Origin: an uncultured Gammaproteobacteria bacterium
GTDB taxonomy: Bacteria > Pseudomonadota > Gammaproteobacteria > UBA9214
Length of the DNA stretch: 64,000 nucleotides
Direction: 5' to 3'
Assembly: GCA_963773065.1 (NCBI GenBank)
Contig: CAVYZN010000023.1
Location: 96,001 to 160,000, forward strand
Each line of letters begins with the position of its first letter. The stretch's first letter is position 1. The notes beneath the pieces were generated by a model. The model did not search any database and was not told where the DNA came from. It worked only from the letters and a program-made list of their open reading frames with translations. A program made the translations under genes and the position numbers. This document shows positions 1,743 to 33,900 of the stretch, in pieces.

Positions 1743-2504
1743 TCAGCGGCGGACATTGCCGGCCCGGCCGATCGCCAGAAAATCCTGCGCATCCAGGGAG
1801 GCGCCGCCGATCAGACCGCCGTCGATATCCGCCATGGCGAGAAGCTCCGCGGCATTGCTGCCCTTGACGCTGCCGCCGTAGAGAATCCGGACCTTCGCCG
1901 CGACGGCCTTGTCCAGGCCGGCCAGCTTGCCGCGGATGAAGGCGTGTACATCCTGCGCCTGCTGCGGTGAGGCGGTCCTGCCGGTGCCGATTGCCCAGAC
2001 CGGTTCGTAGGCGATCACGGCGGCGGCCAGCGCGCCGACGCCCTCGAGGGCGATGACGGCGTCCAGTTGACGGCCGACGACCTGCTCGGTGATGCCCTGC
2101 TCCCGTTCCTCCAGCAGCTCGCCCACGCACAGGATCGGCACCAGTCCGGCCTTGCGCGCGGCGGCGAACTTGCGCGCCGTGAAGTCGTCGCTTTCGCCGT
2201 AGATGCTGCGCCGCTCGGAATGCCCCACGATGGCGTATTTGCAGCCGACATCGGTCAGCATGCCGGGCGCCACCTCGCCGGTATGAGCCCCGGATTCCCG
2301 GTCGTTGACGTCCTGGGCGCCGAGCGCGACCGAGGTCCCCTTTAGCATGGCGGCCACCTGCGGGAGGTAGACGTAGGGCGGGCAGACCGCCAGTTCCGCC
2401 GTGGTGACCATAGCCAGGCCGGCCTTGATCCCCTCGACCAGCTTTTTGATGCTGGCGAGCGATCCGTTCATCTTCCAGTTACCGGCGACCAGTGGCTGAC
2501 GCAT
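1743..2504 (-). CDS. tpiA: triosephosphate isomerase
   Basis: AGNWKMN, GHSERR, AYEPVWAIGTG, YGGSV and GGASL motifs. Confidence 0.98.
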   Translation of the reverse strand: MRQPLVAGNWKMNGSLASIKKLVEGIKAGLAMVTTAELAVCPPYVYLPQVAAMLKGTSVALGAQDVNDRESGAHTGEVAPGMLTDVGCKYAIVGHSERRSIYGESDDFTARKFAAARKAGLVPILCVGELLEEREQGITEQVVGRQLDAVIALEGVGALAAAVIAYEPVWAIGTGRTASPQQAQDVHAFIRGKLAGLDKAVAAKVRILYGGSVKGSNAAELLAMADIDGGLIGGASLDAQDFLAIGRAGNVRR

Positions 2505-2800
2505 TTCGACCTCCCGTGAAAGCAGGCCGGGTAGCTTAGCGATCCGGGACCGGAAAATCAATTTGTCCGGTGAAATGCTTGTTTGCGCAGGAACCTTCGC
2601 TCATGAATGAGCAGACCCCTCAATTGCCTCAGGAACCGTGCGGCCCGGCGGACCTTTCCCCCCCGGCAAGGAAACGCGACCCAGGGTGAGACGCTCAGGC
2701 AACACCGTTTCGTGAAAAATTCACGTAGCCGGGAAAAAGCCCGGTTATTGACTATGATTACGGTACAAAACCCAATGGACCCCGGTAAAGGAGGATCGCT

Positions 2801-3169
2801 ATGGCCAGGAAAGCGCTTTGCATCGGCATCAACAACTACCCCGGTACTCACATGGATCTGCAGGGCTGCGTCAACGACGCCCAGGATTGGGCCGCGGTTT
2901 TGCAGGCACGCGGCTACACGGTCACCACTCTGCTCGACAAACACGCCACCAAGGCCGCGATGGTACAGGCGATGTCGGACCTGATCGGCGCGGCGGGCAA
3001 CGGCGCTTTCACCTACTACGCACTGAAAACGCTCAAGGCGCTGAAGCCGGACGCCAGTTATGCGGACTGGAACAAGGCCATCGGCGCTTATCTGCCGTCC
3101 GCCAGTTACCCGCAGAGTCCGCAACTCGTGGGCAACAAGACGGCGCGCGGGCAGAAGGTTTTTGGCTGA
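2801..3169 (+). CDS. metacaspase (peptidase C14)-derived protein lacking the His/Cys catalytic core
   Basis: Strong SD AAAGGAGGA. N-terminal KALCIGINNY..DLQGCVNDA is joined directly to C-terminal NGAFTYY...YPQSPQL; no SGHG or DSCHSG motif. Confidence 0.8.
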   Translation: MARKALCIGINNYPGTHMDLQGCVNDAQDWAAVLQARGYTVTTLLDKHATKAAMVQAMSDLIGAAGNGAFTYYALKTLKALKPDASYADWNKAIGAYLPSASYPQSPQLVGNKTARGQKVFG

Positions 3170-3236
3170 CCAGTATCCAAGTAAGAAGTGAGAAGTAAAA
3201 AAGTAAGGTCCGGAGCCACCGCCCCGGCACCCGACC

Positions 3237-3464
3237 ATGAACATCTTAGCCATCACACTTTGGCAGATGAATGAGAACCTCCCCGCTTTGAAACTGATGC
3301 GGGCTGCTGCCGAGGGCCGCACGCGCGTGCTGGGGTCGAATCATCCCGATGCGGTCAACTCGCGGCAGATGTTTGCGCAGATGTCGGCAGCATTAAGTGG
3401 TAAACGAATAGGCTTTGTAGACAGGAAAAGAATCATCAGAGGGAACTTGCAAAGCACCAGGTAA
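3237..3464 (+). CDS. small protein/fragment with one TPR_12-like (RVLGxxHPD) repeat
   Basis: RTRVLGSNHPDAVNS resembles kinesin-light-chain-type TPR ends. Only 75 aa. Confidence 0.4.
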   Translation: MNILAITLWQMNENLPALKLMRAAAEGRTRVLGSNHPDAVNSRQMFAQMSAALSGKRIGFVDRKRIIRGNLQSTR

Positions 3465-3541
3465 AACCTTCAGGCGAGTGCCACGTTTGAAAGGGACAGG
3501 ACGCAAATAGGGAATAATCAGGACCAAAGGAGAACGACATC

Positions 3542-6500
3542 ATGACCAGGACCTATAAGATACGCGGCACCGAACAACACGCGAGGACCGTTCCTCCCAC
3601 CAGTCAGGACATCGCCATCACCAATCCGCGCCGGCTGGTCGCCCGGCTCCGCCCGCGAGGCCGGGGTGGGCGAGATCGAGGCGGCGGGCGACGAGGTGGT
3701 GCGGGTGGAACTGGAAAACGGCTTCGTGCTGTGGACCCGGGCCGACGACCTGATCCGGGAGCGGGGCCGGAAGGCGACGAGCCGCGACGGGGGCGAGGGT
3801 TGGGAGATCGAAAGCCGGCCAAAATTGCGGGGCATGCAGTCCGGCCAGCGGGGCTGGCTGGGGCTCGGTATCAAGGTGCTGGAGTTCTTCGGCGTGGACC
3901 TGACGGGCAAGACGGCCGGGGTACTGGGCGACAAGCTGGAGGAGAAACTGTTGAAGGGCAATTTCCCGGGTCTCTACCGCTGCGCCCTGGGGGATGCTTT
4001 TACCCTCACGGTTGTGCCCGACGGTGAGGAACTGCCAACTGGCAAGGAGCCGTTGCTGGTATTTATACACGGTACCGCTTCCAGCACCCAGGGCAGCTTC
4101 GGCAAGCTTTGGGAAGGAGGCGGCAGCGCCGGCGCCGCGGCGCGCAAGACACTCAAGGATCGCTACGGCGACCGGGTGTATGCCTGGGAGCACCGCTCCC
4201 TCACCGTCAGTCCCATCCAGAATGCCCTGGAGTTGGTGCGACGCCTTCCCGCCAACGCCGTGGTCCATTTGGTGACTCATTCCCGGGGCGGGCTGGTGGG
4301 GGAACTGCTTTGTCTCGCCGAGCGGGACAAGTCCAAGGACCCGTTCCAGTCGGATCTCCTGCAAAACCTGTTCGCCGCCGATCGCACCATCGCCGAGCAG
4401 ATCGGCCTGAGCCCGCTGGATGAGGGCGCCGCCAAGACGCGCGACGATGCTTACGGCGAGGACCGGGAGCGGCTGAAAAAGCTGCTGGAATTGCTGGACG
4501 AAAAGCAGATTAAAATCCGACGCTTCGTGCGCGTGGCCTGTCCGGCCCGGGGCACCACCCTGGCCTCGGGCCGCCTGGACCGCTGGCTGTCGGTCATCAA
4601 CCACCTCACCGGCAACAGCCTGGTGGGCGATGCCGCCGACTTCCTGCTGGCGGTGGTGAAGGAGCGCACCGACCCGCGCACCCTGCCGGGGCTGGAGGCC
4701 ATGATGCCCGGCTCGGCCCTCACCCGGATGCTACAGCACCCCGCCCTCACCACCGGCGCCGATCTGACGGTGATCGCCGGCGACGTCGAGGGCGACAACC
4801 TGTGGAGCCAGATCAAGCTGCTGGCCACCGACTGGTTCTACGGCGCCGACCACGATCTGGTAGTGAACACCGGTTCCATGTATGGCGGCATCCGCCGACC
4901 GGAAAAGGGCGCCCGCTTCCTGCGGGACCAGGGTCCCAGCGTCAACCACTTCAGCTATTTCGAGAACGACAAGAGCGTGCGCTGGCTGATGGCGGGACTC
5001 ACCCGGGCCGACGGAACCGACGGCGGCTTCCAGCCCATCGAAGCAGCGAAACACGAAGAACCCCGCTGGCGCGAGGCGGTGCGCCGCAGCCGTGCCGCGA
5101 CCGCGCCGCGGCCCCTGGCCGTGGTGCTGCCGGGCACTCTGGGCAGCGCCCTGAAGGTGCAGGGCGAAAATGTGTGGCTCGACTACTGGTCCCTGTTGTG
5201 GGGCGGGCTCAAGCGGCTAAGCATGGATGCGACGGGGGTCGAGCCCACCGACCTGCTGGACGATTTTTACGGCCCCCTGCTGGAGTTCCTGGCACGCAGC
5301 CACCGCGTGGAGATCTTCCCCTACGATTGGCGGCTTTCGGTGGTCGATGCGGCGAAAAAACTGGCGGACCGCTTGGAAGTCTGGCTGCCGGCAGCCGAGC
5401 GCACTGACCAGTCCGTACACCTGGTGGCCCATTCCATGGGCGGGCTGGTGGTGCGCGCCATGATCGCGGACACGCAACGTGGAGCAGCGCTGTGGCGGCG
5501 CATCGTTGCCCTGCCCAACAGCCGATTCCTGATGCTGGGCACGCCGAACCTGGGTTCCTACGAAGCGGTGCGCTGGCTGACCGGCGGCAACCCAACCCAG
5601 GCCAAGATCAGCCTGCTGGATATCACCCAGAGCACCAACGAGATCATCGATTTGGTGCGCAACTATCCGGGCCTGGTGGAACTGCTGCCCTTCGACCCCG
5701 ACAGCCCCGACTTCAGCCAGCAGGGCCTCTGGAAGAAACTCAGGGACGCCTTGAACGCCTCATGGCAACCGGCCGAGGAAGCGGTGCTGCGCCAGGCGCT
5801 CGCTACCTGGACTCTCTTGAAACAGTCCGCCCCGGATCCCGAGCACATGATTTACGTGGCCGGCTGTCAGGATGCCACGGTGGCGGATTACCACCTGGCC
5901 GACTACGAACAACCCTCTCTCGCTGGACGTAAACGCCTCGAGTTCATCGGCGACCGGCAGGGCGACGGAACGGTGACCTGGAAGTCCGGCCGCCTGCCCG
6001 GCGTACCCGTCTGGTATGTGGAAGACACGGCCCATGACGAGCTGTGCAAGCAGAAACGCGCCCTGCCCGGCTACCTGGATCTGCTCATGACCGGCAAGAC
6101 CACGCGCCTGCCCGGCACCCCGCCGGCCGGGGCGAGAGCGGCGGCGGGCGAGCCGGATCGCTTCCCCATGCCGGCCCTGCCGCACACCGACGACATCCCG
6201 GATGAGCGCAGCGTGCGCAGCTTCAGCTTCGGTCCCGGGCGGCCCTTAGAGACCGATGACGACCGGCCGGTGGTGCCGGTCATCCAGGTCGGCATCTGTC
6301 ACGGCGACCTGGCCTACGCCCATCATCCGGTGCTGGTGGGGCATTACCTGGGTGACACCGTCATCAGCGCCGAGTCCGCCCTGGACCACCGGCTTGGCGG
6401 GGCGCTGACACGGCGCCTGCAGCTCGGGCTCTACCCGGGGCAGACGGGAACCCATGCCCTGTTCTTCAATGAAAAGACGGACGGCAAACCCGGGGGCGCG

Positions 6501-9062
6501 GTCGTGATCGGGCTGGGCCAGGTGGGCGAACTCTCTCCCGGTCTGCTCGAGGCCGGCGTGCGCAACGCGCTGATGGACTACGCCCTGCAGGTGGCTCAAT
6601 GGCCGGACGAACGCTTCGGTCCGGCCAAGGGCGTGCGATCGGCCGCCGTATCCTGTCTGCTGGTGGGCTCCGGCCCGGGCGGCATGGCGGTGCGTGATTC
6701 CGTCGATGCCATCCTCCGGGGCGCGGTGGCGGCCAATGACCGGCTGGAGCAGGCTGATCTGAATGACCGGGTGCTCATCGACCGCGTCGAGTTTCTGGAG
6801 CTGTTCGAGGACGTGGCCCTCGCCGCGGCCGATGCAATGGATTCGATCTTGAAGGACGGGAAACTGGCCAATGCCATCGCCTGGCCGGCGAAAGTCATCG
6901 AGGAAGGACAGGGCCGGCTCCGCCGGGTACGCTGCGACGATACACCGGGCTGGTGGCACCGGCTGGAGATCATCGAGGAGAAAGGCCGGGGCGGCCTGCG
7001 CTTCATCGCCTCCACCGATCGCGCCCGGGCCGAGGTCACCCAGGCCACCGGCCAGCTTCGATTGGCGGACAGCTTTATCCACCAGGCCTCCCAGTCTCCC
7101 GCCAGCAATGCCGAAGTGGCCAAGACCCTGTTCGAGATGCTCCTGCCCAACCGGCTGAAGGAATTGGCCCCCAGACAGACGGACCTGGTGCTGCTGGTGG
7201 ACGCAGCCTCGGCGCGCTACCCCTGGGAATTGCTGGAAGACCGCTGGAGCCAGACCGGCCGGCCGGCCGCTGTTTCCGCCGGCCTGGTGCGCCAGCTCAA
7301 GACGCCCCGGTTCCGTCCCCATCCGGCCCATGCCACCGAGGCCACCGCCTTCGTCGTGGGCAATCCGGATCTGGGCGGCTGGGATTCCTTCCCCGACCTG
7401 CCCGGCGCAAGGCAGGAGGCGCAAAACGTCGCCAGCCGGCTTATGGCCGGAGGTTATCGGGTGAGGGACTGCATTGATGAAAAGGCCGACGTCATCCTGG
7501 AAGTTCTGCACAAGGACGCCTGGCGCATCCTGCACCTGGCGGGCCACGGCGAGCACGAGATGGTGCTGGAGGAGGAAGATGAAGCCCGAGAGGTGTGCGC
7601 GGACGATGAGCGGCCCGTTCCGAAACGCAAGCAGTGCCTCTCGGGCATGGTCATCGGCAGCAAGACTTTCCTCACCCCGGGCGATGTGGAGCAGATGCGC
7701 TGGGTGCCGGAGCTGGTGTTCATCAACTGCTGCCACCTGGGCAAGACCGGCGCCTCCCGACACGGCAAATACAGCCTGCTGGCGGCGAACCTGGGAGTGC
7801 AGTTCATCAACATGGGAGTCAAGGCAGTGGTGGCCGCCGGCTGGGCGGTGGACGACGGGGCGGCGAGCGCCTTCGCGGAGAGTTTCTACGCCCACCTGCT
7901 GGACGGCGAGCTTTTCGGCAAGGCGGTGCGTGCCGCCCGGGAGGAGATCTGGACCCGCTTCCCCAACGTCAACACCTGGGGCGCCTACCAGTGCTACGGG
8001 GATCCCGGCTACCGGCTTCGCGGCGACGGCGCTGCCCCACCGCCTCCCAGCGGCAAGCGCTACCACTCCCCGGCCGAATTGATCGCCGATCTGGAAAACC
8101 ACACCCAAGTGATCCGCGTGAAGATCAAGAACAAGGAGAAGGACGGGGACGAGGATGCCCTCGCCAAGATGCGCGCCGGCATCGTCGGCCTGTTCGGTGC
8201 CATACCGGAAGAGCGGCAGGCGAAATGGCTCGCCCGCGCCGACGTGGCGGCGGCAGTGGGCTTCGCCTGGGGCGAGACCGGCGCCTGGGCCGAGGCCGTG
8301 GAATGGCTGGAGAAGGCACTGCATGCCAAGGAGGGCGATTGCCCGGTGCGGGCGGTGGAACAGTGCGCCAACTTCAGGGTACGGCTGTCCGCGCAGAAGT
8401 GGCAGCAGATGCGTGATGCGGTTGATCGCAAACAGGCCGAGGCAGGTCGCTCTGCGCTGATCCGGGAAATCGAACTCGCCATCCGGGAACTGGACTACCT
8501 CAACCAGCGGGCGCCGACCCAGGAACGATTGGACCTGCTGGGCGGCGCCTGCAAGCGGCTGGCCTGGGTTCACACCGAAGAGGCGCCGCGCCTCGAAGCT
8601 CTGGTCAACATGGCCAACTACTATCGCCAAGCCTTCGATCATGACGACAAAGCCAGATCCCTATCCCTTCACCAACTGGGCCATCGCCAAGGTGTTCGCC
8701 AATCGGTTCGATCCCACCCAGGATGGCGAGTGGCGGATCACTCTGGAAGACGAATGCCGGCGCATGATCGACGTGGCCCGGAGCCGCAACGCCGAGAAAC
8801 CCAATTTCTGGGACGGGGCGGCCGAGGCCGACTGCGAACTGGTGATGTTGCTATGCTGGCAAATCGCGACACCACGACGAAGGCAGCCAACGAAGCCGTG
8901 ACCCGCATTGCCGAACTTTACCGAGCCGCGGCACGGCGCGGCGCCAGTCCCAGGGAATACGCCTCGGTGCTGGAGCACCTGGACTTCGTCATCGAGGTGG
9001 GCGGCTTCACGGCCGGCTCTCCATTGAACGAAGCTCTGCGCGCCATCCGCGATGCGCTCTGA
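3542..9062 (+). CDS. giant multidomain protein: two alpha/beta-hydrolase (lipase/LCAT-like) domains + CHAT caspase-like protease + C-terminal TPR-like region (indels near 3650 and about 8655/8855)
   Basis: SD AAAGGAG before ATG 3542. Motifs FIHGTASS...VTHSRGG and PYDWR...VAHSMGG...LGTPNLGS, CHAT dyad HLAGHG / FINCCHLG, VAAGWAVDD and WGAYQCYGDP. ORF 8641..8901 supplies the likely true frame over part of the C-terminus. Confidence 0.88.
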
Positions 9063-9087
9063 GCCGCCAGGAACCAAGGAGACCGCC

Positions 9088-10123
9088 ATGGCCAACCGTT
9101 CGAAAACCCGGCTGGAAAACCTCAGTCTCGAAGACCTCGACCCGCAGGATCTCATCGCCGCGAACTTCCGTGTCTATGAACTCACCCGTTCCGAACTCGC
9201 CAGCCGGCTGGGCATAGACAACACCTTCCCGAGCGACCGGGAACTGCGCGCCGCCGTGTACCTGGCCCGCAAGGTGCTGCAGGTGATTCGCGATACCTTC
9301 GGCCCCTATACCCCAAACAGCGTGTTCCGCAGCCAAGCCCTGGAGCGCGCGCTGAAGAAAAAGCCCGGCGGGTGGATCAGCACCAGCCAGCACACCCAGG
9401 GCTGCGCCTGTGACGTGGAGATCGTCGGCAAGACCACCCTGGAACTGGCTCAATGGGCGGCGGACAACCTGCCCGACTACGACCAGATCATCTGCGAGTG
9501 CTTCGACCCGAGCGAAGGCCCCAACTCCGGTTGGGTGCATATCTCCCTCAAGCCCCCCGAATTGGGGGTAAACCGCAGGACCCTCTTGAGCTACATCCGT
9601 GATCCCGAAAATGGAACTCATCGCCGCGAACTTCCGTGTCTATGAACTCACCCGCTCCGAACTCGCCAGCCGGCTGGGCATAGACAATTCCTTTCCCAGC
9701 GAGCGGGAGCTGCGCGCCGCCGTGTACCTGGCGCGCAAGGTGCTGCAGGTGATTCGCAAGGAATTCGGTTCCTTCTCACCCAACAGCGTGTTCCGCAGCC
9801 AGGCTCTGGAACGCGCGCTGAAGAAAAAGCCCGCCGGCTGGATCAGCACCAGCCAACACACCCAGGGCTGTGCCTGCGACCTGGAACTCGTCGGCAAGAC
9901 CACCCTGGAACTGGCCCAGTGGGCGGCGGACAACCTGCCCGACTACGACCAGATCATCTGCGAGTGCTTCGACCCGAGAGAAGGTCCCAACTCCGGTTGG
10001 GTGCACATCTCCTTCAAGCCCCCCGAATTGGGGGTAAACCGCAGGACCCTCCTGAGCTACATCCGTGATCCCGGAAGCGAACAGATGGTTTATGTCGAGG
10101 GGTTGCGGGAAAGCGTGGCGTGA
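9088..10123 (+). CDS. peptidase M15A-like (D-Ala-D-Ala/endolysin-type Zn peptidase), two tandem domains; either one frameshifted gene or two overlapping genes (9088..9645 and 9611..10123)
   Basis: SD AAGGAG. Each half has NF..ELTRS, S.FRS.AL, SQHxxGxAxD and WVHIS Zn-ligand motifs. Confidence 0.82.
9151..10073 (+). repeat. diverged tandem direct repeat, two 457-bp copies (9151..9607 and 9617..10073)
   Basis: Both copies begin CTCATCGCCGCGAACTTCCGTGTC and end CTACATCCGTGATCCCG, with scattered substitutions between them. Confidence 0.95.
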
Positions 10124-10211
10124 CAATTGGCATGATGTCGAAGTGACTGTGCGCGACACCGGTGAGATCAGCGCGAGTGGAAAATACTTCCGGCATCGCA
10201 CCGGTTACTGA

Positions 10212-10388
10212 GAGCCTGTGAAAATATCGCCAGCCTGCGTCGGACGCCGCTTTGCGGCTGCGGCGGCGTTGCGCCACGCGAAAACTTCGGTCATTTGGCT
10301 CGCCAAACTCCCTTGTTTTCGCGCAGCGCGCCTTGCCTCGCACGCAAATCGACGCCCTCGCGACGACCGTCGATATTTTCACAGGCTC
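10212..10388. mobile_element. MITE (non-autonomous, IS5/IS1182-like ends)
   Basis: Perfect terminal inverted repeats GAGCCTGTGAAAATATCG / CGATATTTTCACAGGCTC, flanked by TGA on both sides (10209-10211 and 10389-10391). No transposase inside. Confidence 0.75.
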
Positions 10389-10794
10389 TGAATCCATACA
10401 TCATCCACTGCAAGGAGGAGATGGCCATGAATAAATGCGTTGTGTTGCTACGCAACGCTTGGTGGATTACGCAAGAATACGCTAACCCCCTACCCGCCCT
10501 GATTTGTATTCCTCCCTCAATGACAGACAGAACGCTTACCTTGACGGATATCCGCTGATCCCGTTCAGCGGCATGCGCCATGGCGGCGTGTGCCACAGTT
10601 GAAGTAACCGGTGACAGAACGTCTGAAAAAAATTCAAGACCCTGCGCTCCTGCCTCCTGCATGCGGTGAAATTTATACCCGGCCTTCAACGGAAGCGATT
10701 GGGCGAAATCCTGACTGCTCCATCGAATACCGGGGTTTCTTTCGCCAGCCCGGTTATCTGCGATATGCTCCTTTCTCTTGAGAACACGGGCCAC

Positions 10795-13504
10795 ATGACC
10801 ACCATCTACCTCTCTTCGTCCTACGAAGACCTGAAGGACTACCGCCGGGTCGTGTTCGAGGCCCTGCGACGGTCCGGGTATAACGTCATCGCGATGGAGG
10901 AGTACGTCGCCCGTGACGACCGCCCCGTGTACGCCTGCCTTCAGGACGTCGATCACGCCGACATCTATGTGGGGCTGTTTGCCTTCCGCTATGGCTACAT
11001 CCCGCCCGCCGCACACGGCAATCCCAACGGCCTGTCCATCACCGAACTGGAGTTCCGGCGCGCCGATCGCTGCGCCTGCCAAGAAATGCCTGACGTTTCT
11101 GCTCGATGAAAAGACCCCCTGGTCGAGCCTATACAACGACGCCTATACACGTGAGAACGAACGCGGTGAGCGAATCAAGAAGTTGAGGGATTACCTGCGG
11201 CAGGAAAAGATGGCAAGCTTCTTCAGCACACCCCACGAACTGGCCAGCCTGGTGCAAGCCGCCGTCAGCCAACATCTCCAGTCCGGCCGGGAAGAATCCC
11301 CGGCGTCCGAAACCCGTTCCGAACCGATCACCTGGCACGTCGCCAAAGACGACTCGCCCTATCCGGGGCTCATGCACTTCACGCGACAGTTCGCCCGGGT
11401 GTTCTTCGGCCGCGAGGGGGAGGCGCGGGAACTGCTCGACCGGATGACCCTGCCCGATGGCCGCTTCCTCATCGTGAGCGGCGACTCCGGCACCGGCAAG
11501 TCCTCGCTGGTGGATGCGGGCGTGTTACCCCGGCTGGAGGAATCCGGACTCCCCGGATACCCGACACTCACTACGGTACGCCTGGTCCCGGGCGAAGGAG
11601 AGAACCCCTTCGACGCCCTGCTCCGGGTCCTTAGCCCTTACGCACAACGGGCGGGTTTGAACTCGTATCTGCTTGGCACCGAGGAGCTGGTCGCCCACCC
11701 CGAGAATTTGCCGGCAACGCTTGCGACGATCGTCGCGCGTGGCATGGACACAAAGGCCTTGGTGCTGTTTGTCGACCAGATGGAAGAGCTGTTCACGGTC
11801 AAGGAAGAGGAAAAAGCGCTGGCGGCCGCCTTTCTCTCGGGGCTTTACCAGGCCATCCAGACAAGCGCCTTGTGGGTCATCGCCACCATCCGCACCGACC
11901 TGCTGCACCACTGCTACAACCACCCGGACCTGCTCAAGGTCCTGCGCGGTCCGGGGCATTATCCGCTCGGTCCGATGGCGCTCCACCGGTTGCATGAGAT
12001 CATCGTGCGGCCCGCTCGCTGCGCCGGCCTGGCAGTTCCCGGTCCTCTGGCGGGACGTCTGATCAAGGACGTCGGCACGGAAGCGGGCAATCTGCCGTTG
12101 CTGGCCTTCGTGCTGCGGCGGTTGTTCGACAGACGCCAGGATAATGTGCTCAGTGAAGCAGTCTACGATGACCTCGGCGTCCTCAATGGCGCCATCGCCG
12201 ATCACGCTGCTTCGGTGCAACGCGAACTCGCCGCCACCCTTGGACAAGAAGTCCTGGAACGGCGTCTTGCCGAAATCTTCGAGGCTCTGGTCCACGCGGA
12301 TGTGGAGGGCCTGCCCACCCGGCGCAGCGTCCCTTCGCAGGAGTTTTCCGACCACATGCATACCGTCATCGATGCCCTGGTGAAGGGACAGCTTCTGACC
12401 GTGCAGGGTGGGCGCGATAAGGGCACCGTCACCGTGGCTCACGAACGCCTGTTCAATGCCTGGCCGGCGCTTGCCCATTGGGTCGCCGAACTCCAGGACG
12501 AGCTGCGCCTGCTGCGCCAGGGTGAACTCGATGCCGCGGAGTGGCAGCGTCATAACGCAGACCTCGGCTATCTTTGGCACACCGACCGCCTGATGCGCTT
12601 GCAGACGGTGGTAAGCGGCCTGGCAGCCAACCGGGCAAGCCGGCAGCTACGCGACTTCGCCTGGCCGCAACAACGTCTGGTGAACCGCCTGAACGAACCG
12701 GAACTTACCCATGAGGTACGCCAGAGCATCGGCCGCTACCTGGCCGAGCAGGGCGATCCACGGCCGGGGACCGGTGTGACCGCCGACGGTATCCCGGACA
12801 TCGACTGGGTAGACATACCCGACGGTCGCGTGGTGTTGGAGAAAAATGTCGGCGCGGGCATGGTCGAACCTTTCCGCATGGCGCGTTATCCCATCACCAA
12901 TGCCCAGTTCGAAGCCTTCGTGTCCGCCGCAGATGGTTATCGTAACCGGGAATGGTGGACAGGATCGCCGGAGGCCGCCAGCGATGGCCTGGAAACGCCG
13001 CGCTGGCCCGAACCCAACCATCCGCGCGTGTCTGTATCCTGGTACAAGGCGGCGGCCTTTTGCCGCTGGCTGTCCCGGCGGCTCGGCTTCGAGGTCTGGC
13101 TGCCCACCGAATTCGAGTGGCAGCAGGCGGCCACCGGCGGTGACCCGACCAACGTCTATCCCTGGGGCCCCGAATGGGATGCGCGCTACTGCAACAGTAC
13201 GAAGAGCAGGCTGAACCGAACCACGGCGGTGGGCATGTATCCCGCGGGCGCCAGCCACCAGGGCGTGCTGGATCTGGCCGGCAACGTGTGGGAATGGTGC
13301 AAGAATAAATACGACAATCCCGATGACCCAAAGGCGTTGCGCGTCGATGATTCCGGAGATTCGCGCGTGTTGCGCGGCGGGTCCTGGGCCGGCGGTCCGG
13401 TCGACCTGCGTTGCGCCGACCGCTTCAGGTTCTTTCCCGACGACCGCTTCGTCGACATCGGGTTTCGTGTGGTGTGCCGCCCCCGCTCTTCCACGGGACG
13501 CTGA
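10795..13504 (+). CDS. DUF4062 + STAND-type NTPase + FGE-sulfatase (SUMF1/CLec-like) domain protein (indel near 11065)
   Basis: DUF4062 IYLSSSYEDL...RYGYIP...SITELEF. SPYPGL..F...FFGRE, Walker A GDSGTGKSS, Walker B LFVDQMEELF, GNLPLLAF and AHERLF. FGE motifs LPTEFEWQQAA, DLAGNVWEW and RGGSW...GFR. Confidence 0.9.
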
Positions 13505-13604
13505 CGGGAATGGCACTTACATCGGGTTACCTCAACCTGCTATTTTGACGGAGCCGCGGAATGCGCACCCGGCGCGCAAGAGTACAATCATCGCGGGGAT
13601 ACCC

Positions 13605-13721
13605 ATGAACACCTACGAACCACACCCAATCGACACCTCCGGCATCCGGCTACCCGAGGATCTCCTGGAACTCACCGAAGAACTTGCCCGCAACCGTATA
13701 CTCCCTCCGGGCGCCGCGTGA
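13605..13721 (+). pseudogene. truncated 5' copy of the RyR-domain gene
   Basis: MNTYEPHPIDTSGIRLPEDLLELTEELARN is nearly identical to the first 30 aa of 15113..15400, then diverges and stops overlapping the next ATG. Confidence 0.8.
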
Positions 13722-14977
13722 TGTCCGCTGAAACAGCCTCCACGAAGAACGACAGCCGGCACGTTTTCATCAGCTTCGCATCGGCGGATCTCGAACTGGC
13801 CAATCGGATCGTCGAAAGGCTGGAGCGCGGCGGGATCCGCTGCTGGATCGCGCACAGGGACATCGAACCCGCCGCGAGCTATCCAGCCGCCATCACGGCC
13901 GCCATGACTTCAAGCGCAGCCGTCCTGCTGCTCCTGACTGAATCGTCCAACAGTTCGCCTCATGTGCTGCGCGAAATCGAGATGGCGTTCAACGCCCGCA
14001 CACCCATCCTGCCGGTGTGCATGGCGGGCCTCACGCCTTCGGCCGATTTGCAGTATTTCCTTTCGACGACGCAATGGTTCGATGCCGGCGCGACCTTCGA
14101 CGAGGGTGACGCAAAACGGCTGCAGGACCGTCTGAAAGAACTGCTCGCAGGCGGCACGGTTCACCGCGGCAGACGGGATATTCCAGGCCGATTCGGACGA
14201 CGGGCCTTCATCGCGGGAGTGCTGGCGCTGTCGGCCGTGGCTGTTATCGTCTTATCCTTCGTCGTTCCATGGGGATTTCATCCGTCGCGGGAGTCCATCC
14301 AAACGAAAGTCAGCTCGCGGGACGGCCAGACGTACGTGTGGGTCCAAGCCGGTGATTACGTGATGGGATGCTCGTCAGGAGATCCTGCATGCGAAGAAGA
14401 TGAGAAGCCTGCGCATAGGGTCCGCATCAAACAGGGCTTCTGGCTTGCCCGCACGGAGGTAACGGAGGCGCAGTACCGTAAGCATGCACCGGCAGGGAGC
14501 GGTGATCGCCAGGAGGCGGACGCCAATATGCCGGCAACAGAGATTACCTGGGCGGATGCGAATGTCTATTGCACGGCGATCGGTGGCCGGCTGCCAACGG
14601 AAGCCGAGTGGGAATACGCGGCACGCGCGGGCACCACGACCCGCTACTACGGCGCGCTCGGGTCTATCGCGTGGTACGAGGACAACAGTAACCAACGCGC
14701 GCATCCTGTGGGGCAGAAGCAGCCCAATGCGTTCGGCCTCTACGACATGCTGGGCAACGTGGCGGAGTGGGTTCGAGACCGCTATTACAACTCGTACGAC
14801 GATAGCGGCGATGAAGTCGCGATCGAGGAGCCGCTGGCACCGAACGCCTCGGCTATCGCGCGCGGCGGTTCATGGTTCTCGGATGCGCGCGGTGTCCGAG
14901 TATCGCGGCGGCTCGATATGATCCCGGAGGCGGCAGAGGCGATAATCGGCTTTCGTTGCGCATACGACAAGCTATGA
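13721..14977 (+). CDS. TIR domain + transmembrane helix + FGE-sulfatase (CLec-like) domain protein
   Basis: HVFISFAS.D...CWIAHRDI...SNSSPHVLREIE (TIR with conserved Glu), hydrophobic AFIAGVLALSAVAVIVLSFVV, then RLPTEAEWEYAARAG, LYDMLGNVAEW and RGGSW...GFR. Confidence 0.9.
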   Translation: MSAETASTKNDSRHVFISFASADLELANRIVERLERGGIRCWIAHRDIEPAASYPAAITAAMTSSAAVLLLLTESSNSSPHVLREIEMAFNARTPILPVCMAGLTPSADLQYFLSTTQWFDAGATFDEGDAKRLQDRLKELLAGGTVHRGRRDIPGRFGRRAFIAGVLALSAVAVIVLSFVVPWGFHPSRESIQTKVSSRDGQTYVWVQAGDYVMGCSSGDPACEEDEKPAHRVRIKQGFWLARTEVTEAQYRKHAPAGSGDRQEADANMPATEITWADANVYCTAIGGRLPTEAEWEYAARAGTTTRYYGALGSIAWYEDNSNQRAHPVGQKQPNAFGLYDMLGNVAEWVRDRYYNSYDDSGDEVAIEEPLAPNASAIARGGSWFSDARGVRVSRRLDMIPEAAEAIIGFRCAYDKL

Positions 14978-15112
14978 CCGGGCCAGGCTCAGTGAGAGTG
15001 GTGGGCGATGCTCACCCTACGTGCTACCCCCTGCTCCCGCAACCTGTTATTTTGAGCGAGCCGCGGAATGCACACCCGGCGGCGCAAGGGCACAACCATG
15101 GCGGGGATACCC

Positions 15113-15400
15113 ATGAACACCTACGAACCTCACCCGATCGACACCTCCGGCGTCCGGCTACCGGAGGGCCTCATGGAACTCACCGAAGAACTCGCGCGCA
15201 GCACGCACGATCACTGGGCGAGACAGCGCATCGGGGAGGGATGGAGCTGGGGTCCCGCGCGCGATGACGCCGCCAAACGGCACCCCGACCTCGTGCCCTA
15301 TGCCGAGCTTTCGGAAGCGGAGAAGCAGTACGACCGCACGACCGCCATGGAAACGCTGAAGGCGATCATCGCCCTGGGATACCGGATCGAGCGCGATTAG
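15113..15400 (+). CDS. stand-alone RyR-domain protein
   Basis: P.PIDTS.V.LP..L..L.E.LAR.THD.WA..RI.EGW..GP.RDD..KRHPDLVPY.ELSE.EK.YDR..A.ETLK.I.ALGY.I matches the ryanodine-receptor repeat consensus. Confidence 0.9.
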   Translation: MNTYEPHPIDTSGVRLPEGLMELTEELARSTHDHWARQRIGEGWSWGPARDDAAKRHPDLVPYAELSEAEKQYDRTTAMETLKAIIALGYRIERD

Positions 15401-15454
15401 CGCCGCAAAGGGCTGCGCCCCACGGACTCCCGAAACGGGGGAAAGCACAACGGG

Positions 15455-16675
15455 TCAATCCTCGATGTCCCTGGCAAGACGAAAACCAATGTAGCTGTAC
15501 CCGGCACCGGGGGAGTCCCTGAGCCGGGACGCGGAACGCAGGCCCACCGCCAGGAGGTACCAGGAACCACCGCGCACCACGCGCTGGCCGCAATCTCCGC
15601 CGCCGCCCTCCAACCAGGCGGAACCGTCATCGGGCGCGCCATCGTAGTTATCATGCACGCAGTCCTGCACCCACTCCCACACATTGCCCGCCGTGTCGTA
15701 AAGACCAAACGCGTTCGCCTCGAATGACCCTACCGGCGCCGTGTACTTCCCTTCGGCCTTGCCCTGCCACTCACTCTCACAATCCTCGCAGTTGGCCATC
15801 CCCGGCTTCATCTCCTCACCCCACCAGTACCGCGTCGAAGTCCCCGCCCGCGCGGCATACTCCCACTCGGCTTCGGTCGGGAGCCGATACGGCTTACCCG
15901 TCTGTTGCGACAGCCATTCGGCATAGGCTACCGCATCAACCCAGGAGACATTGATCACCGGCCGACGGTCACGACCCCAGCCACCATCGGCCGGCAGCGC
16001 ATGCCCCGTTGAGGCCGCAAACTGGTCGTATTCCTCGAAGGTCACTTCGTATCGCCCAATCGCAAACGGCCTGGTGAAAGTAACCCGGTGCTGGGGACGC
16101 TCATCCGGATCCCGGCCATATTCATCGCCTGGCGAACCCATCATGAAAGAACCCGGCGGAATTTCCACCATCTCGGGACCCTTCGAACCATCAAGCAATG
16201 TGTCGCGAATCACAGCCGGCAATGACACGTTGGCTACGTTTACGTTTTCGCTTGGTTCTTTGCTGATTTCAGTCGGCCGATGGGGTTGACCGACAATCTC
16301 GGCGATATCCTTCCTCAGGTTCCGATAAGAATCCTGGTTAACGGTGCCATCCCAATCGAACAATTCAAGCGTTTGCAACTCTTCGAACCGAAAGGGAAGA
16401 TCGACCGCCTCAATCTTGACCGGAACCAGTTTATTGTGATTCAGAGCGTAATACGCCTCGTCCTTCACATAAGTCGACTGGACCGAACGTTGCGACCACA
16501 GGACGATGACGCAGCGGGATGCCTTCATTGCCTGCTCGATCACATCATCGAAGTGTTCGCCCGCGTGGAGCTTCGGGTCCCACCAGACACTCCAGCCCTC
16601 GCGTTCCAGCGCATCCGCCAGGCATCTGGCGACGTGCTGTTCCTCCCGTTTGTAGCTGATAAAAATATCCGTCAT
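15455..16675 (-). CDS. TIR domain + FGE-sulfatase (CLec-like) domain protein
   Basis: DIFISYKRE...VWWD...VIVLWSQRSVQSTYVKDEA (TIR_2 with Glu), then GPEMV.IPPGSF.MGS, RLPTEAEWEYAARAG, GLYDTAGNVWEW and RVVRGGSW...GFRLA. Confidence 0.92.
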   Translation of the reverse strand: MTDIFISYKREEQHVARCLADALEREGWSVWWDPKLHAGEHFDDVIEQAMKASRCVIVLWSQRSVQSTYVKDEAYYALNHNKLVPVKIEAVDLPFRFEELQTLELFDWDGTVNQDSYRNLRKDIAEIVGQPHRPTEISKEPSENVNVANVSLPAVIRDTLLDGSKGPEMVEIPPGSFMMGSPGDEYGRDPDERPQHRVTFTRPFAIGRYEVTFEEYDQFAASTGHALPADGGWGRDRRPVINVSWVDAVAYAEWLSQQTGKPYRLPTEAEWEYAARAGTSTRYWWGEEMKPGMANCEDCESEWQGKAEGKYTAPVGSFEANAFGLYDTAGNVWEWVQDCVHDNYDGAPDDGSAWLEGGGGDCGQRVVRGGSWYLLAVGLRSASRLRDSPGAGYSYIGFRLARDIED

Positions 16676-16812
16676 GCTCGCGACTTGTTCCAGGTTTCGT
16701 ATGCCGGTGAAAAACGAGACGGGGCGTTCGGCCTGCGCCTACCCGCCCCGTCCCGCGCCGTCCGTGACAGGTCTATTAGGCGGCCCCATCCGTGCGGTCG
16801 GCAATGGCGGCT

Positions 16813-18147
16813 TCAGACGGCCGCGGCCACGGCCGTGGCCAGATGACCGGCCTCTTCGCGCACCGTCTGTTCGTCCTCGCCTTCGACCATGACCCGCACC
16901 ACGGGTTCGGTCCCGGACGCGCGCAACAGGACACGGCCCCTGCCGCTGAGCCGCCGCTCCGCCGACCGGACCGCCTCCTGCACGCCCGGCGCGGCCTCCA
17001 AGTTCATGCTCTTACCGACCGGTACGTTGATCATGTACTGCGGATATTTCTTCATGCCGGCCTTCAACTCGTGCAGCGGCTTGCCGCCCATGATCATGGT
17101 GGCGAGCACCTGCAGCGCGGCGACGATGCCGTCGCCGGTGGTGGTGCGGTCCAGGCAGATGATGTGGCCGGAGGATTCCCCGCCCAGCATGCCGCCGGTC
17201 TGCTGCAGCCGCTCCAGCACGTAGCGGTCGCCGACCCGGGCGCGCTCGAAGGCGATGCCGTGCGCCTGCAGGGCATGCTCCAGTCCGAGGTTGCTCATCA
17301 GGGTGCCGACGACGCTGCCGTTCAGCTTGCCCTGCTCCCGGCGCGAGCGCGCGATGATGAACAACAGCTCATCGCCGTCCACCAGTTCGCCGCGGCTGTC
17401 GACCATGATGACGCGGTCGCCGTCGCCATCGAGGGCAACCCCGGCATCGGCGGCGTGTTCCCGCACCGTTTTCTGCAACTGCTCGGGCTGGGTGGAACCG
17501 CAGTCGAGGTTGATGTTGAGGCCGTCGGGATGCGTGCCGACCTTGATCACCTCCGCGCCCAGTTCGTCGAAGATGCTGGGCGCGACGCCGTAGGTGGCGC
17601 CGTTCGCGCAGTCGACGACGATCTTCAGGCCCCGCAGCGACAGGCTCATCGGCACCGTGCTCTTGCAGAACTCGATATAGCGCCCGGGGGCATCGGGCAC
17701 GCGTTCCGCCTTGCCGAGCCGGGCGGAGTCCACGGTGACCATGGGCTTCTCCAGCTCGTCCTCGATGGCGAGTTCGATCTCGTCCGGCAGCTTGGTGCCC
17801 TGGCGCGAGAAGAACTTGATGCCGTTGTCGAAGTAGGGATTGTGCGAGGCGCTGATGACGATCCCGGCGCAGGCATGCAGGGTGCGCGTGAGATAGGCGA
17901 TGCCGGGGGTGGGCATGGGACCCAGCAGGCGGATGTCGATACCGGCGGCGGAAAGACCCGCCTCCAGCGCCGATTCGAACATGTAGCCGGAAATGCGCGT
18001 GTCCTTGCCGATGATGACCAGGTCGCCGCCGGCAAGCCCCAGCACGCGGCCGGTTGCCCAGCCCAGTTTCAGCATGAACTCGGCCGTTACCGGGTATTCC
18101 CCCACCCGACCGCGGATGCCGTCGGTACCGAAATATTTTTTCGCCAT
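16813..18147 (-). CDS. glmM: phosphoglucosamine mutase
   Basis: [29 protein letters not shown] and RASGTEP motifs. Confidence 0.98.
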
Positions 18148-18188: not shown

Positions 18189-18404
18189 ATTCACCGCAAA
18201 GACGCAAAGTTCGCGAAGACTTATTAACAAAAATCATTAAACAGCTTTGCGTTCTTTGCGTCTTTGCGGTGAATTTATTTCTTTATGGATGGACATTGAT
18301 TCACCGCATTTTCGCTCTCTCCATCCTGTCCTGTATTACCGCTCAACACCGAAGTTGTTTTCAAGTGATTATTGGTTTTGCGGTCTTGGCGTCTTTGCGG
18401 TGAG
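18189..18404. repeat. REP-like palindromic repeat cluster
   Basis: Perfect 21-bp inverted pair ATTCACCGCAAAGACGCAAAG (18189-18209) / CTTTGCGTCTTTGCGGTGAAT (18254-18274). A further arm GCGTCTTTGCGGTGA lies near 18390. Confidence 0.75.
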
Positions 18405-21952: not shown

Positions 21953-22409
21953 TCAATCGATCCGGGCATCCCCATCCCTGCGCCCGACCGCCACCAGGAG
22001 CAGGCCAAGCACACAGTTGACGAGATACACCCCGCTCGCCAGGCCGTGCGCCTGGGCAAAACGGGCGCTTTCCGTCAGTCCCGCGGCACGCAGTTCCGCG
22101 ATCCACGGGGCGAGGACGAATTCTCCGAGCAGGATCAGGGCCAGCATCGCCACGATCACGATCGCACGCCAGGCGCGGGAAGCGCCGCTGCCGGCGCAGG
22201 TACCCGTTGATCGCCAGCAGGCCGCAGCCGCAGGCAAGCCCCGCATAGCTCATCACGCCGAAGAGGGCCCCGGCCAGGGTACCCGCCAGCGCCCGGTCCT
22301 CCAGTTGCGAAAACAGGAGCGGCGCCACGACGAACCCGGCCGTCCACAGGCCGCCGACCCAGAAGGTCAGGAGCGTGCGTTCCACCGCCTGCAGGTAGGG
22401 ATTGGTCAT
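21953..22409 (-). CDS. DUF4149-family membrane protein (indel near 22190)
   Basis: TFWVGGLW..GFVVAP.LF..L.DR.LAG.LAG followed by F...HG...VYLVN in the second frame; common greA-rlmE neighbour. Confidence 0.8.
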
Positions 22410-22622
22410 GGATCAGAACTCCTGGAATTCGGTTCAGCGCGTCGTTACAAGCCGCGGCGCAACGCGTTTAACAGGTTTTGTGGCAAGAATAGCGTGGGAC
22501 TTGCCGTAAATCCGTTCTAGGTACACTGCATCCATGCGTCGATGACCGCCTAGCCGTTCCGACATCCCTGGTAGTCGTGCAGCTCTGTAGCGGTGAGAAC
22601 AGGTTTACAGGGACGGCCACTT

Positions 22623-23095
22623 TTAGATGTAACGGACCTCGACGATCTCCAGGCTGCGCGCGCCGCCCGGGACCGTGACCGTAACGACATCGCCTTCCAT
22701 CTTGGCGATGAGCGCCCGCGCAATCGGGGAATTGATCGAAATCTTGCCGGCCTTGATATCGGCCTCGTCCTCGCCGACGATCTGGTAGGTCACGGACTCG
22801 CCCGTGTCCTCGTCCGCCAGCACCACCGTACTGCCGAACACGACCTTGCCGCCGGCATTCAAGGTGGTGACGTCGACGATATGGGCATGGCTCAGCTTGC
22901 CCTCGATCTCCTTGATGCGTCCCTCGGTAAAACTTTGCTGTTCGCGGGCGGCATGGTATTCGGCATTTTCCTTCAGATCGCCATGCGCGCGCGCCTCCGC
23001 GATGGCCTGGATGATGCGGGGGCGATCGAGCGTCTTCAACCTGAGCAGCTCCTCGCGCAATTTTTCCGCGCCTTTTGCCGTAATGGGGACCTTGG

Positions 23096-31920: not shown

Positions 31921-31949
31921 ACATGGGGACGGCAGGCAAATAAATCAAG
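31921..31949 (-). promoter_or_regulatory. sigma32 (RpoH)-type promoter upstream of dnaK
   Basis: Minus strand CTTGAT-N15-CCCCATGT. Confidence 0.75.
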
Positions 31950-32552
31950 CCTGAGGATTGGTGCTGGCGCCGCCGGAGTCCTCGGGCAACCGTGACACGA
32001 TCACCATCGCCGGTCGCAGGAGGCGCTCGTTCAGCAGGTAGCCTTTCTGGACCACGGTCACCACGGTATTCGGTTCGATGTCCGCGCGCTCCTGCAGGGA
32101 CACGGCCTGGTGAAAATCCGGATTGAACCGCTCGAGCTGCGGATTGACCTCCGTGATGCCGAATTTCCCCAGGACGGTCGTGAGCATCTGCAGGGTCAGT
32201 TCGACGCCCTCCTGCAACCTCGACCGGATCGACCTGCCCGCCCGCGAGGGCGGCGAGACCCATTTCCAGGCTGTCGCGCACCGGCAGCAATTCCTGCGCA
32301 AAACGTTCCAGGGCAAACTTGTGGGCGTTGGCCAGGTCACGCTCGGAACGCTTGCGCAGATTGTCCATTTCGGCCTGCAGACGCAGACACAGGTTCCAGT
32401 TCTCATCGACCTTGTTGCGGGCATCTTCCAGCAAGGTGGCCAGTTCCGGTTCCTGCGGCGGCGGGCGCCATGGCGGCCCCTGTATCAGGGGGGATCTCCG
32501 CCCCGGCCTGCTCAGCCGATTCCTCGGCGAGGTTATTTTCCTTATCCGACAT
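31945..32552 (-). CDS. grpE: nucleotide exchange factor GrpE (two apparent indels)
   Basis: [13 protein letters not shown]...LLPVRDSLE in one frame and FNPDFHQAV...[18 protein letters not shown] in the next; ATG 32552. Confidence 0.93.
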
Positions 32553-33759: not shown

Positions 33760-33900
33760 TGCGCCGCATGCAACCGGCGCTTTGTCTGCCGCAGGAACAA
33801 GAAAACGGTTTCAGACCGCCGGCAACGGGTGGACTCGCGGGAGTTGGCGTACCTGTACCGTCATGATAGCTTTCCAGTCTGTCCATCCGAAAAGGCATCC

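Follow-up and report, generated by a model that had tools for sequence, protein, structure and literature searches.

We analysed a 64,000-nucleotide window of DNA from an uncultured gammaproteobacterium (C23:96001-160000 of the source genome G000, which comprises 3.84 Mb in 33 contigs and is 91% complete with 6% contamination), in which the interval between tpiA and glmM holds two sets of genes of conflict and immunity families. Unit A, spanning 2801-10123, encodes a small metacaspase, a giant multidomain protein (hereafter the giant) and an M15 peptidase. Unit B, spanning 10795-16675, encodes a DUF4062-nSTAND1-FGE protein, a TIR protein with a transmembrane (TM) helix and an FGE domain (TIR-TM-FGE), a RyR-domain protein and a TIR-FGE protein. 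We read the interval as a probable composite island of conflict (defence-type) genes at a variable chromosomal site, in which two evolutionarily separable units are joined. We prefer this reading because of the frequencies of neighbouring genes at other giant loci, the autonomy of the STAND-FGE protein and the repeats at the junction of the units. A preliminary description of this DNA had proposed a single new innate-immunity-like system; every gene that it named between tpiA and glmM was recovered with Pfam at about the position it had assigned.

The neighbours of the giant were surveyed at 95 other loci, 15 from genomes and 80 from metagenomes, whose flanks were scored with hidden Markov models (HMMs) made from Pfam-verified examples. 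Longest-open-reading-frame (ORF) calling often chose antisense shadow frames in these high-GC loci, and neighbour counts were therefore based on HMM or tblastn matches rather than ORF calls. A caspase gene lies within 500 nt upstream of the giant on the same strand at 27 of 56 evaluable loci, and an M15 gene within 400 nt downstream on the same strand at 36 of 79. Flanks of 3 kb or more were available at 73 loci; 15 of these have TIR anywhere in the flanks, and 17 have a ~520-aa multi-TM protein without a Pfam match. The other families of Unit B are rare neighbours (FGE at 4, RyR at 3, nSTAND1 at 2 and DUF4062 at none of the 73), and a reverse transcriptase (RT) was found at 1. The proposal of a single system thus stands in that its parts belong to conflict and immunity families, but these genes do not form one conserved system. 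Of the partners suggested for the giant, M15, RyR and TIR-FGE, M15 and TIR genes recur next to it, as do the caspase and the ~520-aa membrane protein, and RyR and FGE genes are rare neighbours.

The architecture of Unit B is common on its own. The DUF4062-nSTAND1-FGE protein had 736 matches at E<=1e-3, the best 60% identical, and most of the 120 homologues listed carry all three domains, typically in 880-920 aa. The loci of nSTAND1/FGE homologues were examined in an even sample of the class (401 genomes, G000 counted), where an RT lies within 1.5 kb at 3 of 12 loci (L151, L157, L160), or 2 of 10 without the unpublished genome G177 (L157). The junction of the two units is marked by a palindromic miniature inverted-repeat transposable element (MITE)-like element and a repetitive extragenic palindromic (REP)-like repeat, which lie exactly between the second M15 copy and the STAND gene. 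G000 carries 15 further copies of the former (92-98% identity) and ~18 of the latter (84-92%). Both reach a depth of 15-130 fold in public soil and sediment contigs, compared with ~1-10 around them.

Features of the island, its junction and flanks, and the conserved genes found split over several frames; positions refer to the window
Feature	Position	Strand	Remarks
Metacaspase remnant, 122 aa	2801-3169	+	Peptidase_C14 profile positions 2-63 of 233 only, E 9.8e-12
Giant, ~1,840 aa in relatives	3542-9062	+	ATG at 3542 (MTRTYKIRG), in another frame than the open frame 3666-9062
M15 peptidase copy a, 197 aa	9052-9645	+	Peptidase_M15_3, E 2.3e-7
M15 peptidase copy b, 174 aa	9599-10123	+	Tandem duplicate; Peptidase_M15_3, E 1.9e-6
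MITE-like element, ~185 nt	10207-10391		Palindromic, terminal inverted repeats (AGAGCCTGTGAAAATATCG...)
REP-like repeat, ~60 nt	10426-10488
DUF4062-nSTAND1-FGE, ~900 aa	10795-13504	+	DUF4062 2e-22, nSTAND1 7.1e-89, FGE 1.2e-43; 1-nt frame break near 11067
RyR remnant, 163 nt	13530-13692	+	Upstream spacer and first ~40 codons; 89% identical to 15037-15200; weak RyR match, profile positions 1-27
TIR-TM-FGE, 419 aa	13718-14977	+	TIR_2 2.4e-21, FGE 7.5e-46
RyR-domain protein, 110 aa	15068-15400	+	Single repeat; Pfam RyR 1.2e-35, profile positions 1-91 of 91
TIR-FGE, 406 aa	15455-16675	minus	No TM helix; TIR_2 1.8e-23, FGE 2.4e-64; converges on RyR gene
tRNA-Leu	995-1079	minus
secG	1044-1703	minus
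tpiA	1743-2561	minus	Pfam
glmM	16813-18147	minus	Pfam
grpE	31948-32446		Conserved gene, split (two to three frames)
nadK	33835-34775		Conserved gene, split (two to three frames)
CHASE2-adenylate/guanylate cyclase	47844-49845		Conserved gene, split (two to three frames)

The giant is composed of a conserved N-terminal region, a DUF7379 alpha/beta hydrolase, an LCAT-like hydrolase, a Macro-fold domain, CHAT and TPR-S, in this order (Pfam scores 1.5e-32 for DUF7379, 1.1e-9 for the LCAT-like hydrolase, 2.3e-28 for CHAT and 1e-9 for TPR-S). Among 7999 candidates scored, 1665 matched it at E<=1e-3; the best 120 of these are all full length (1794-1918 aa), 55-83% identical and nearly all of the same Pfam set, and the named sources among the homologues listed are beta- and gammaproteobacteria, e.g. 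Thauera, Azotobacter, Nitrosomonas and Accumulibacter. With more than 1,600 homologues and a presence in ~2% of the sampled class genomes (10 of 401), Unit A represents a large conserved family, a self-contained cassette of wide distribution. In 13 homologues aligned with it (30-71% identity), the Ser-Asp-His residues of the first hydrolase, S206, D373 and H428, are found in all 13. Those of the second are found in 11 (S590), 13 (D767) and 12 (H790), the catalytic Asp and His of both hydrolases being assigned by position and not by structure. The His-Cys dyad of CHAT, H1294 and C1356, is invariant in all 13.

Residues 860-1165 of the giant are blank in Pfam and were modelled with AlphaFold from a 53-sequence alignment. 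The model has a mean pLDDT of 82.8, with values above 90 over model residues ~10-220, and Foldseek matches it to macrodomains (macroH2A1.1, TTHA0132, YmdB, PARP9/14, MACROD2 and DarG) with probability 1.00 and target-normalised TM-scores of 0.63-0.74, those for macroH2A1.1, TTHA0132 and PARP9/14 being 0.67-0.74; in all, 186 matches reached E<=1e-3. The Gly-rich loops are kept (G85, G90-G92, G142), and leucyl aminopeptidase (LAP) N-domains are also among the Foldseek matches. From the model and these matches, giant residues ~870-1070 are predicted to adopt a Macro fold that Pfam missed. A Macro-domain profile search of G618, G350 and G004, which included no positive-control genome, found none. 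In the literature searched, we found no paper on DUF7379/PF24096, none on Tetratricopeptide Repeats-Sensor/PF20308 ('TPR-S' being used in unrelated senses) and none joining CHAT and Macro domains.

Compared with the full-length caspases encoded upstream of the giant at L015, L017, L019, L020 and L022, the window caspase consists of the first ~66 residues joined in frame to the last ~56. The deletion removes ~140 codons from what in the relatives is a protein of 262-264 aa, almost wholly Peptidase_C14 with no extra C-terminal domain and encoded directly upstream of the giant. The window copy therefore lacks both the His (YSGHG) and the Cys (DSCHSG) catalytic segments, and judging from its sequence the caspase arm is dead in this genome. 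This deletion is not confined to the present assembly, because a contig of the public run X3 crosses the junction (2695-3304) without a large insertion. Between the remnant and the giant, an 85-codon open frame (3207-3461) resembles a TPR fragment; the relatives have only 60-250 nt there.

The M15 gene is doubled in the window, with 89% identity over 300 nt between 9147-9446 and 9613-9912, and is single in all relatives examined with tblastn. Both copies keep HxxxxxxD and a downstream His, and neither has a signal peptide, as judged from sequence and hydropathy. Loose contig ends of public runs occur at 9649/9650, near the duplication junction. In the metagenome set, M15 is limited to the closer subfamily of the giant: it is present at 5 of 6 loci where giant identity is at least 60%, at 24 of 40 where it is 50-60% and at 1 of 19 where it is less than 50%. 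Caspase pairing is kept down to 33-37% giant identity (L036, L037, L038, L041), and other wall-directed genes occur at distant loci, namely Amidase_2 in L038 and PG_binding_1 in L037.

Four frame breaks interrupt the island genes. Three lie in the giant, near 3640, 8645 and 8849, with residues ~1660-1725 out of frame between two indels. The fourth, near 11067, shifts the STAND gene after its ATG at 10795, so that DUF4062 is in the frame 10666-11109 and nSTAND1-FGE in 10913-13504; tblastn joins the two as one gene. The breaks are probably assembly errors, because grpE and nadK are split alike and contigs of the unrelated public runs X1 and X2 lack the extra letters. Those contigs, 95-99% alike, have 1 letter fewer at 8645, 5 fewer at 8849 and 1 fewer at 11067, and no indel at the ~3640 break was found among the public-contig matches listed. 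Measured against Pfam-verified orthologues in G001, grpE has 1 break, nadK 1 and the CHASE2-cyclase 3, which amounts to at least 5 in the ~25 kb compared. Assembly indel errors seem to occur at about 1 per 4 kb.

These lesions could also be read as pseudogenisation of a decaying, non-functional island. The caspase deletion with the X3 contig across its junction, the four breaks, the 5' remnant of a RyR gene, the M15 duplication and the agreement of X3 with the assembly at 11067 would all fit such a reading. We consider it improbable: breaks are about as frequent in the conserved genes of the window, precisely the extra letters are missing from X1 and X2, and the proteins, apart from the breaks, share 60-83% identity with intact homologues and keep their catalytic residues. 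The island is a patchwork of genes at a hot spot, and its resemblance to a set of pseudogenes is probably an artefact of assembly.

Several points weigh against the reading of the island as two separable conflict units. In the class sample, an nSTAND1/FGE homologue (E<=1e-40) is found in 6 of the 10 giant genomes compared with 4 of the 390 others (Fisher p 8e-9, or 5e-6 without G000 and with two congeners merged), where one of the four non-giant genomes is the unpublished G177 and genome-level counts ignore phylogeny. The partners within Unit A are themselves inconstant, the caspase being missing from roughly half of the giant loci and M15 likewise from roughly half; neither is present at 15 of the 35 metagenome loci evaluable on both sides, and the two are therefore not obligatory. 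The home-made HMMs are less sensitive than Pfam, so the partner frequencies are lower bounds. A sequence profile search with the Macro-fold domain finds only the LAP N-domain (3jru, E 0.0012), which is not known to bind ADP-ribose. The genes of the window show lesions, namely the caspase deletion and four frame breaks, the latter likely assembly errors; at 11067 the X3 contig lacks the 1-letter difference and X4 gives no cover. Finally, no experiment on any member of the giant family was found in the literature.

The main rival is an integrated Thoeris-like system, in which TIR-FGE and DUF4062-STAND-FGE would make a signal derived from ADP-ribose (ADPR), this signal would be received by the Macro-fold domain of the giant and would set off CHAT, the lipases, the caspase and M15, and RyR would set a threshold by degrading or sequestering the signal. 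We judge it unlikely, but it has support on several sides. The giant does contain a Macro-fold domain, and Macro domains of type II Thoeris receive His-ADPR (10.64898/2025.12.03.692087; PMC11204291). TIR flanks the giant about 10x above its density in G000, which has 5 TIR_2 matches in 3.84 Mb or ~2% per 16 kb, and G184 (L034) also juxtaposes RyR, a diversity-generating retroelement (DGR), TIR-nSTAND1-FGE and the giant. The genome-level co-occurrence given above points the same way and extends to the small RyR, found in 4 of the 10 giant genomes and 1 of the 390 others. On the other hand, co-occurrence of this kind may simply single out genomes that contain many such systems, and 58 of the 73 giant loci have no TIR in the flanks searched, FGE, nSTAND1 and RyR being rarer still. 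The DUF4062-nSTAND1-FGE protein is already sensor, switch and effector in one, and its usual neighbour is the DGR RT, with RyR within 1.5 kb at none of the 12 loci. Moreover, the sequence of the Macro-fold domain is similar to that of LAP N-domains, repeats sit at the junction of the units, and the small RyR has another two-gene context in three genomes: G137 and G319, both of which carry the giant on a different contig, and G618, where the giant is absent.

A related proposal centres on the giant as a receiver of TIR signals. Its Macro-fold domain would bind an ADPR-derived messenger from TIR-FGE, TIR-TM-FGE or TIR-PASTA proteins, some of them Toll-like transmembrane receptors with an external sensor, and would launch a CHAT-caspase cascade, membrane lipolysis and wall hydrolysis by the leaderless M15, with the host-encoded RyR acting as signal hydrolase or sponge. 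Parallels would exist in plants, where TIR proteins signal to lipase-like receptors of the EDS1 family, and in the ring nucleases of type III CRISPR. We nevertheless find this proposal quite unlikely.

For the composite island, we infer all activities and the order of events from published family members, with domain content, conserved catalytic residues, gene-order statistics, topology and composite structure taken directly from the data. In Unit A, a trigger sensed via TPR-S and/or the Macro-fold domain would switch on CHAT, which would process the neighbouring small caspase, as in the SAVED-CHAT to PCaspase cascade. The lipase domains would damage the inner membrane, and this damage may let the leaderless M15 reach peptidoglycan, a step that is our own suggestion; the infected cell would then die or lyse. 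Unit B would comprise three independent lectin-fold (FGE/FGS) sensors. DUF4062-nSTAND1-FGE would be sensor, switch and NADase in one protein, its STAND NTPase serving as the oligomerisation switch, TIR-TM-FGE a membrane receptor with FGE facing outward, and TIR-FGE its cytoplasmic counterpart. Ligand binding by FGE would oligomerise the TIR or TIR-like domains, leading to NAD+ depletion or ADPR-type signals. The RyR protein, probably co-transcribed with TIR-TM-FGE, could bind or cleave signals of the cyclic ADPR (cADPR) type and so act as a host-side buffer.

The topology of TIR-TM-FGE was examined by hydropathy, which shows one hydrophobic helix at aa ~163-185 with an Arg-rich stretch before it. 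This predicts a cytoplasmic TIR and an extracytoplasmic FGE domain, making the protein a candidate bacterial receptor with Toll-like topology. The RyR gene starts 90 nt downstream on the same strand. PDB matches of its product are RyR repeats and the bacterial 'putative ryanodine receptor' chains 3nrt and 6uag, with no RyDEP entry among the 60 listed. A host RyR copy beside TIR genes would suggest self-regulation of TIR signalling. The RyR remnant stands after the STAND-FGE gene, and a RyR gene therefore once followed that gene directly.

At L151, the locus of the closest homologue, the order is STAND-FGE, RT and a convergent FGE gene; in the window, the position of the RT is taken by the RyR remnant, TIR-TM-FGE and RyR, followed by the convergent TIR-FGE. 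No RT was found in the window contig. In G000 as a whole (91% complete), no DGR-type RT was found near any FGE gene, and a search for template repeats matching the 3' ends of the three FGE genes gave none. The best RT matches in G000 are 452-aa copies on C10, 32% identical. These are two identical frames, 2.6 kb apart (C10:19359-20294 and 21993-22928), and probably represent a retroelement present in repeated copies, for instance a group II intron. A complete-looking DGR stands beside the giant in L034 (G184:C12, 600-5800), with the RT at 1391-2467 on the minus strand, TIR-nSTAND1-FGE as its target and a RyR gene at 672-950. Its template repeat (1326-1387) and variable repeat (3065-3126) are 74% identical, and most of their differences fall at T, corresponding to A on the coding strand. 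Outside the window, G000 also carries a caspase-FGE fusion in a 725-aa frame (C22:70331-72505).

Small stand-alone RyR genes were found in 5 genomes of the 400 in the class sample, and one of six other matches in a 400-genome phylum sample is of this kind (G618). They lie beside TIR or nSTAND1 genes in G000, G184 and G350. In G137 (L057, C22 8719-10420), G319 (L058) and G618 (L149), the small RyR follows a gene of ~440-460 aa, Cu-amine-oxidase-like by Pfam in G137 and so judged from synteny in G319 and G618. RyR as an obligate partner was considered and rejected on the 12 loci described above and on these three genomes.

A scan of 16 island ORFs with PADLOC-DB v2 found no named system, in line with the preliminary description. 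It gave domain-level matches only, to a caspase (5.7e-10), to SAVED_CHAT (0.0018) and to the TIR parts of the SAVED-TIR, ThsB and Aga models. Whether the locus is already described has a different answer for its two units: no paper was found for Unit A, while the DUF4062/TIR-nSTAND1-FGE part is published as NTPase-FGS. STAND NTPase-FGS proteins, for which nSTAND1 was named, carry N-terminal TIR, DRHyd or peptidase domains, occur in several copies per genome and are frequently linked to DGRs (Kaur et al. 2021, PMC8195603), and DGR targets of the STAND-FGS type were described by Dore et al. 2024 (PMC10907252). By its sequence, Unit B is a member of this computationally defined class, sharing an N-terminal TIR-type effector, nSTAND1 and a C-terminal FGE/FGS domain in one chain, with several paralogues per genome. 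It differs in that the window has neither DGR RT nor template repeat, whereas the relatives L034, L151, L157 and L160 have an adjacent RT. Neither PMC8195603 nor PMC10907252 mentions RyR (0 occurrences).

DUF4062 has been described as a TIR-like NADase with antiphage activity (Swarozyc, bioRxiv 10.64898/2026.05.01.722283). As in Swarozyc, DUF4062 stands at the N-terminus of a multidomain protein among defence-type genes. The tested proteins, however, carry their own auxiliary domain and are activated by phage portal, whereas the window fuses DUF4062 to nSTAND1 and FGE. Reminiscent of Thoeris are TIR proteins, a Macro-fold domain in a multi-effector protein and a caspase-family protease in one neighbourhood, but there is no conserved two-gene TIR-effector operon and PADLOC gives weak TIR-domain matches only. 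Type IV Thoeris combines a short TIR with an active caspase-like protease that has a C-terminal domain, in contrast to the window caspase without catalytic segments and to its relatives of ~262 aa, almost all Peptidase_C14. RyR-domain proteins of phages (RyDEP, with the catalytic dyad H75/D117) cleave or sequester 2'/3'cADPR (2026, PMC13232231). The RyR protein resembles these in its single PF02026 repeat of ~100 aa beside TIR genes, which makes it a candidate signal binder, and differs as a chromosomal island gene next to TIR genes rather than a phage gene.

TPR-CHAT is known as Craspase. Unit A resembles this protease and SAVED-CHAT/PCaspase in that the gene for its CHAT protease adjoins one for a small caspase-like protease and CHAT carries TPR-type repeats. 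It differs in having no CRISPR or SAVED context, in its marginal SAVED_CHAT match and in the fusion of CHAT to two lipase-like hydrolases and a Macro-fold domain. SAVED-CHAT activates PCaspase in type III-B CRISPR (as cited in 10.1101/2024.10.24.620036), and in the VMAP ternary systems every caspase domain is accompanied by a neighbouring alpha/beta hydrolase (Kaur et al. 2020, PMC7159879). Unit A fits this published theme of caspase and alpha/beta-hydrolase pairing; unlike the VMAP systems, it has no vWA, MoxR or VMAP genes in the neighbourhoods scanned with Pfam, places the hydrolases and CHAT in one chain and adds M15 as a partner. The giant thus fuses four enzyme- or ligand-type domains that are used singly as effectors or sensors in known bacterial immunity, and with its recurring protease and wall-hydrolase partners it is a testable candidate for a multi-armed cell-death effector. 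We found no description of the fused double-hydrolase-Macro-CHAT-TPR-S protein, of its partners or of a chromosomal RyR beside TIR; the supplements of 10.64898/2025.12.03.692087, with 29 putative effector types, might list related effectors.

Directly downstream of the giant, L106 (6672-8933) and L108 (13324-15579) encode a TIR fused to five PASTA domains, a second type of TIR protein whose sensor would bind the wall or a ligand. The coupling of TIR to PASTA next to the giant, the predicted location of the lectin-fold domain of TIR-TM-FGE outside the cytoplasm and the recurrence of wall-directed enzymes would also suit a module that is not antiviral, namely one for regulated self-lysis or kin conflict in aggregate-forming bacteria, cued via outward FGE and, in relatives, PASTA. 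Kaur et al. tie a multicellular habit to these families (PMC7159879, PMC8195603). Since tested family members, DUF4062/Swarozyc and TIR-caspase, act against phages and DGRs diversify the FGE domains of relatives, in keeping with the recognition of variable invaders, we hold this explanation to be highly improbable.

The ~520-aa protein counted in the giant flanks has a multi-pass membrane N-terminal half and a soluble C-terminal domain, and it directly follows M15 or the giant (L086:13938-15509, L093:5637-7217, L078:8131-9771 and others). It is absent from the window and is a candidate further effector or receiver. Shadow frames and low-complexity sequence contaminated part of the all-against-all clusters of flank ORFs, of which two were examined.

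We compared the glmM-tpiA interval across G001, G002, G003, G010 and G004. The contiguity of glmM and tpiA, which the preliminary description had taken as usual in many gammaproteobacteria, is not the rule in this family. The gap is 8.2 kb with V-type ATPase genes in G001, and in G002 and G003 such genes adjoin glmM or tpiA at broken contig ends; V-type ATPase subunits A, B, D and I thus occupy the slot in three of four congeners (G001-G003; L008, L012, L013, L014). A weaker ATP-synt_D match occurs elsewhere in G000 (C32:48159). In G010, the gap is 6.2 kb and holds amidohydrolase, deacetylase and acyltransferase genes unrelated to the island. In the closest relative, G004 (glmM 93% identical), a TIR-nSTAND1 gene adjoins glmM and a PG_binding_1 protein is encoded on the tpiA side, and its homology with the window breaks off at ~2876 and ~16793. 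These differing contents make the interval a replaceable slot, which holds conflict-type genes in the G000/G004 lineage. The island was not found in any of the 4 same-genus genomes, and a search of 60 relatives yielded no full-length giant, 5 of them giving short weak matches only.

Beyond glmM, folP and ftsH follow on the minus strand. The G+C of the tpiA-glmM block is 0.57-0.69, with lower values at ~2500-3500 and ~10000-11000. A short repeat between glmM and folP (18190-18273), probably another REP-type element, recurs beside tpiA in relatives, at 1537-1616 and 3738-3835 of L008 in both orientations and also in L013 and L014. In metagenome-assembled genomes of Thiobacillus/Hydrogenophilales (L016, L017, L018, L020), tpiA and nuoA-nuoD are likewise close to the giant cassette, which follows a gene of the alpha-amylase family and is oriented opposite to that in the window.

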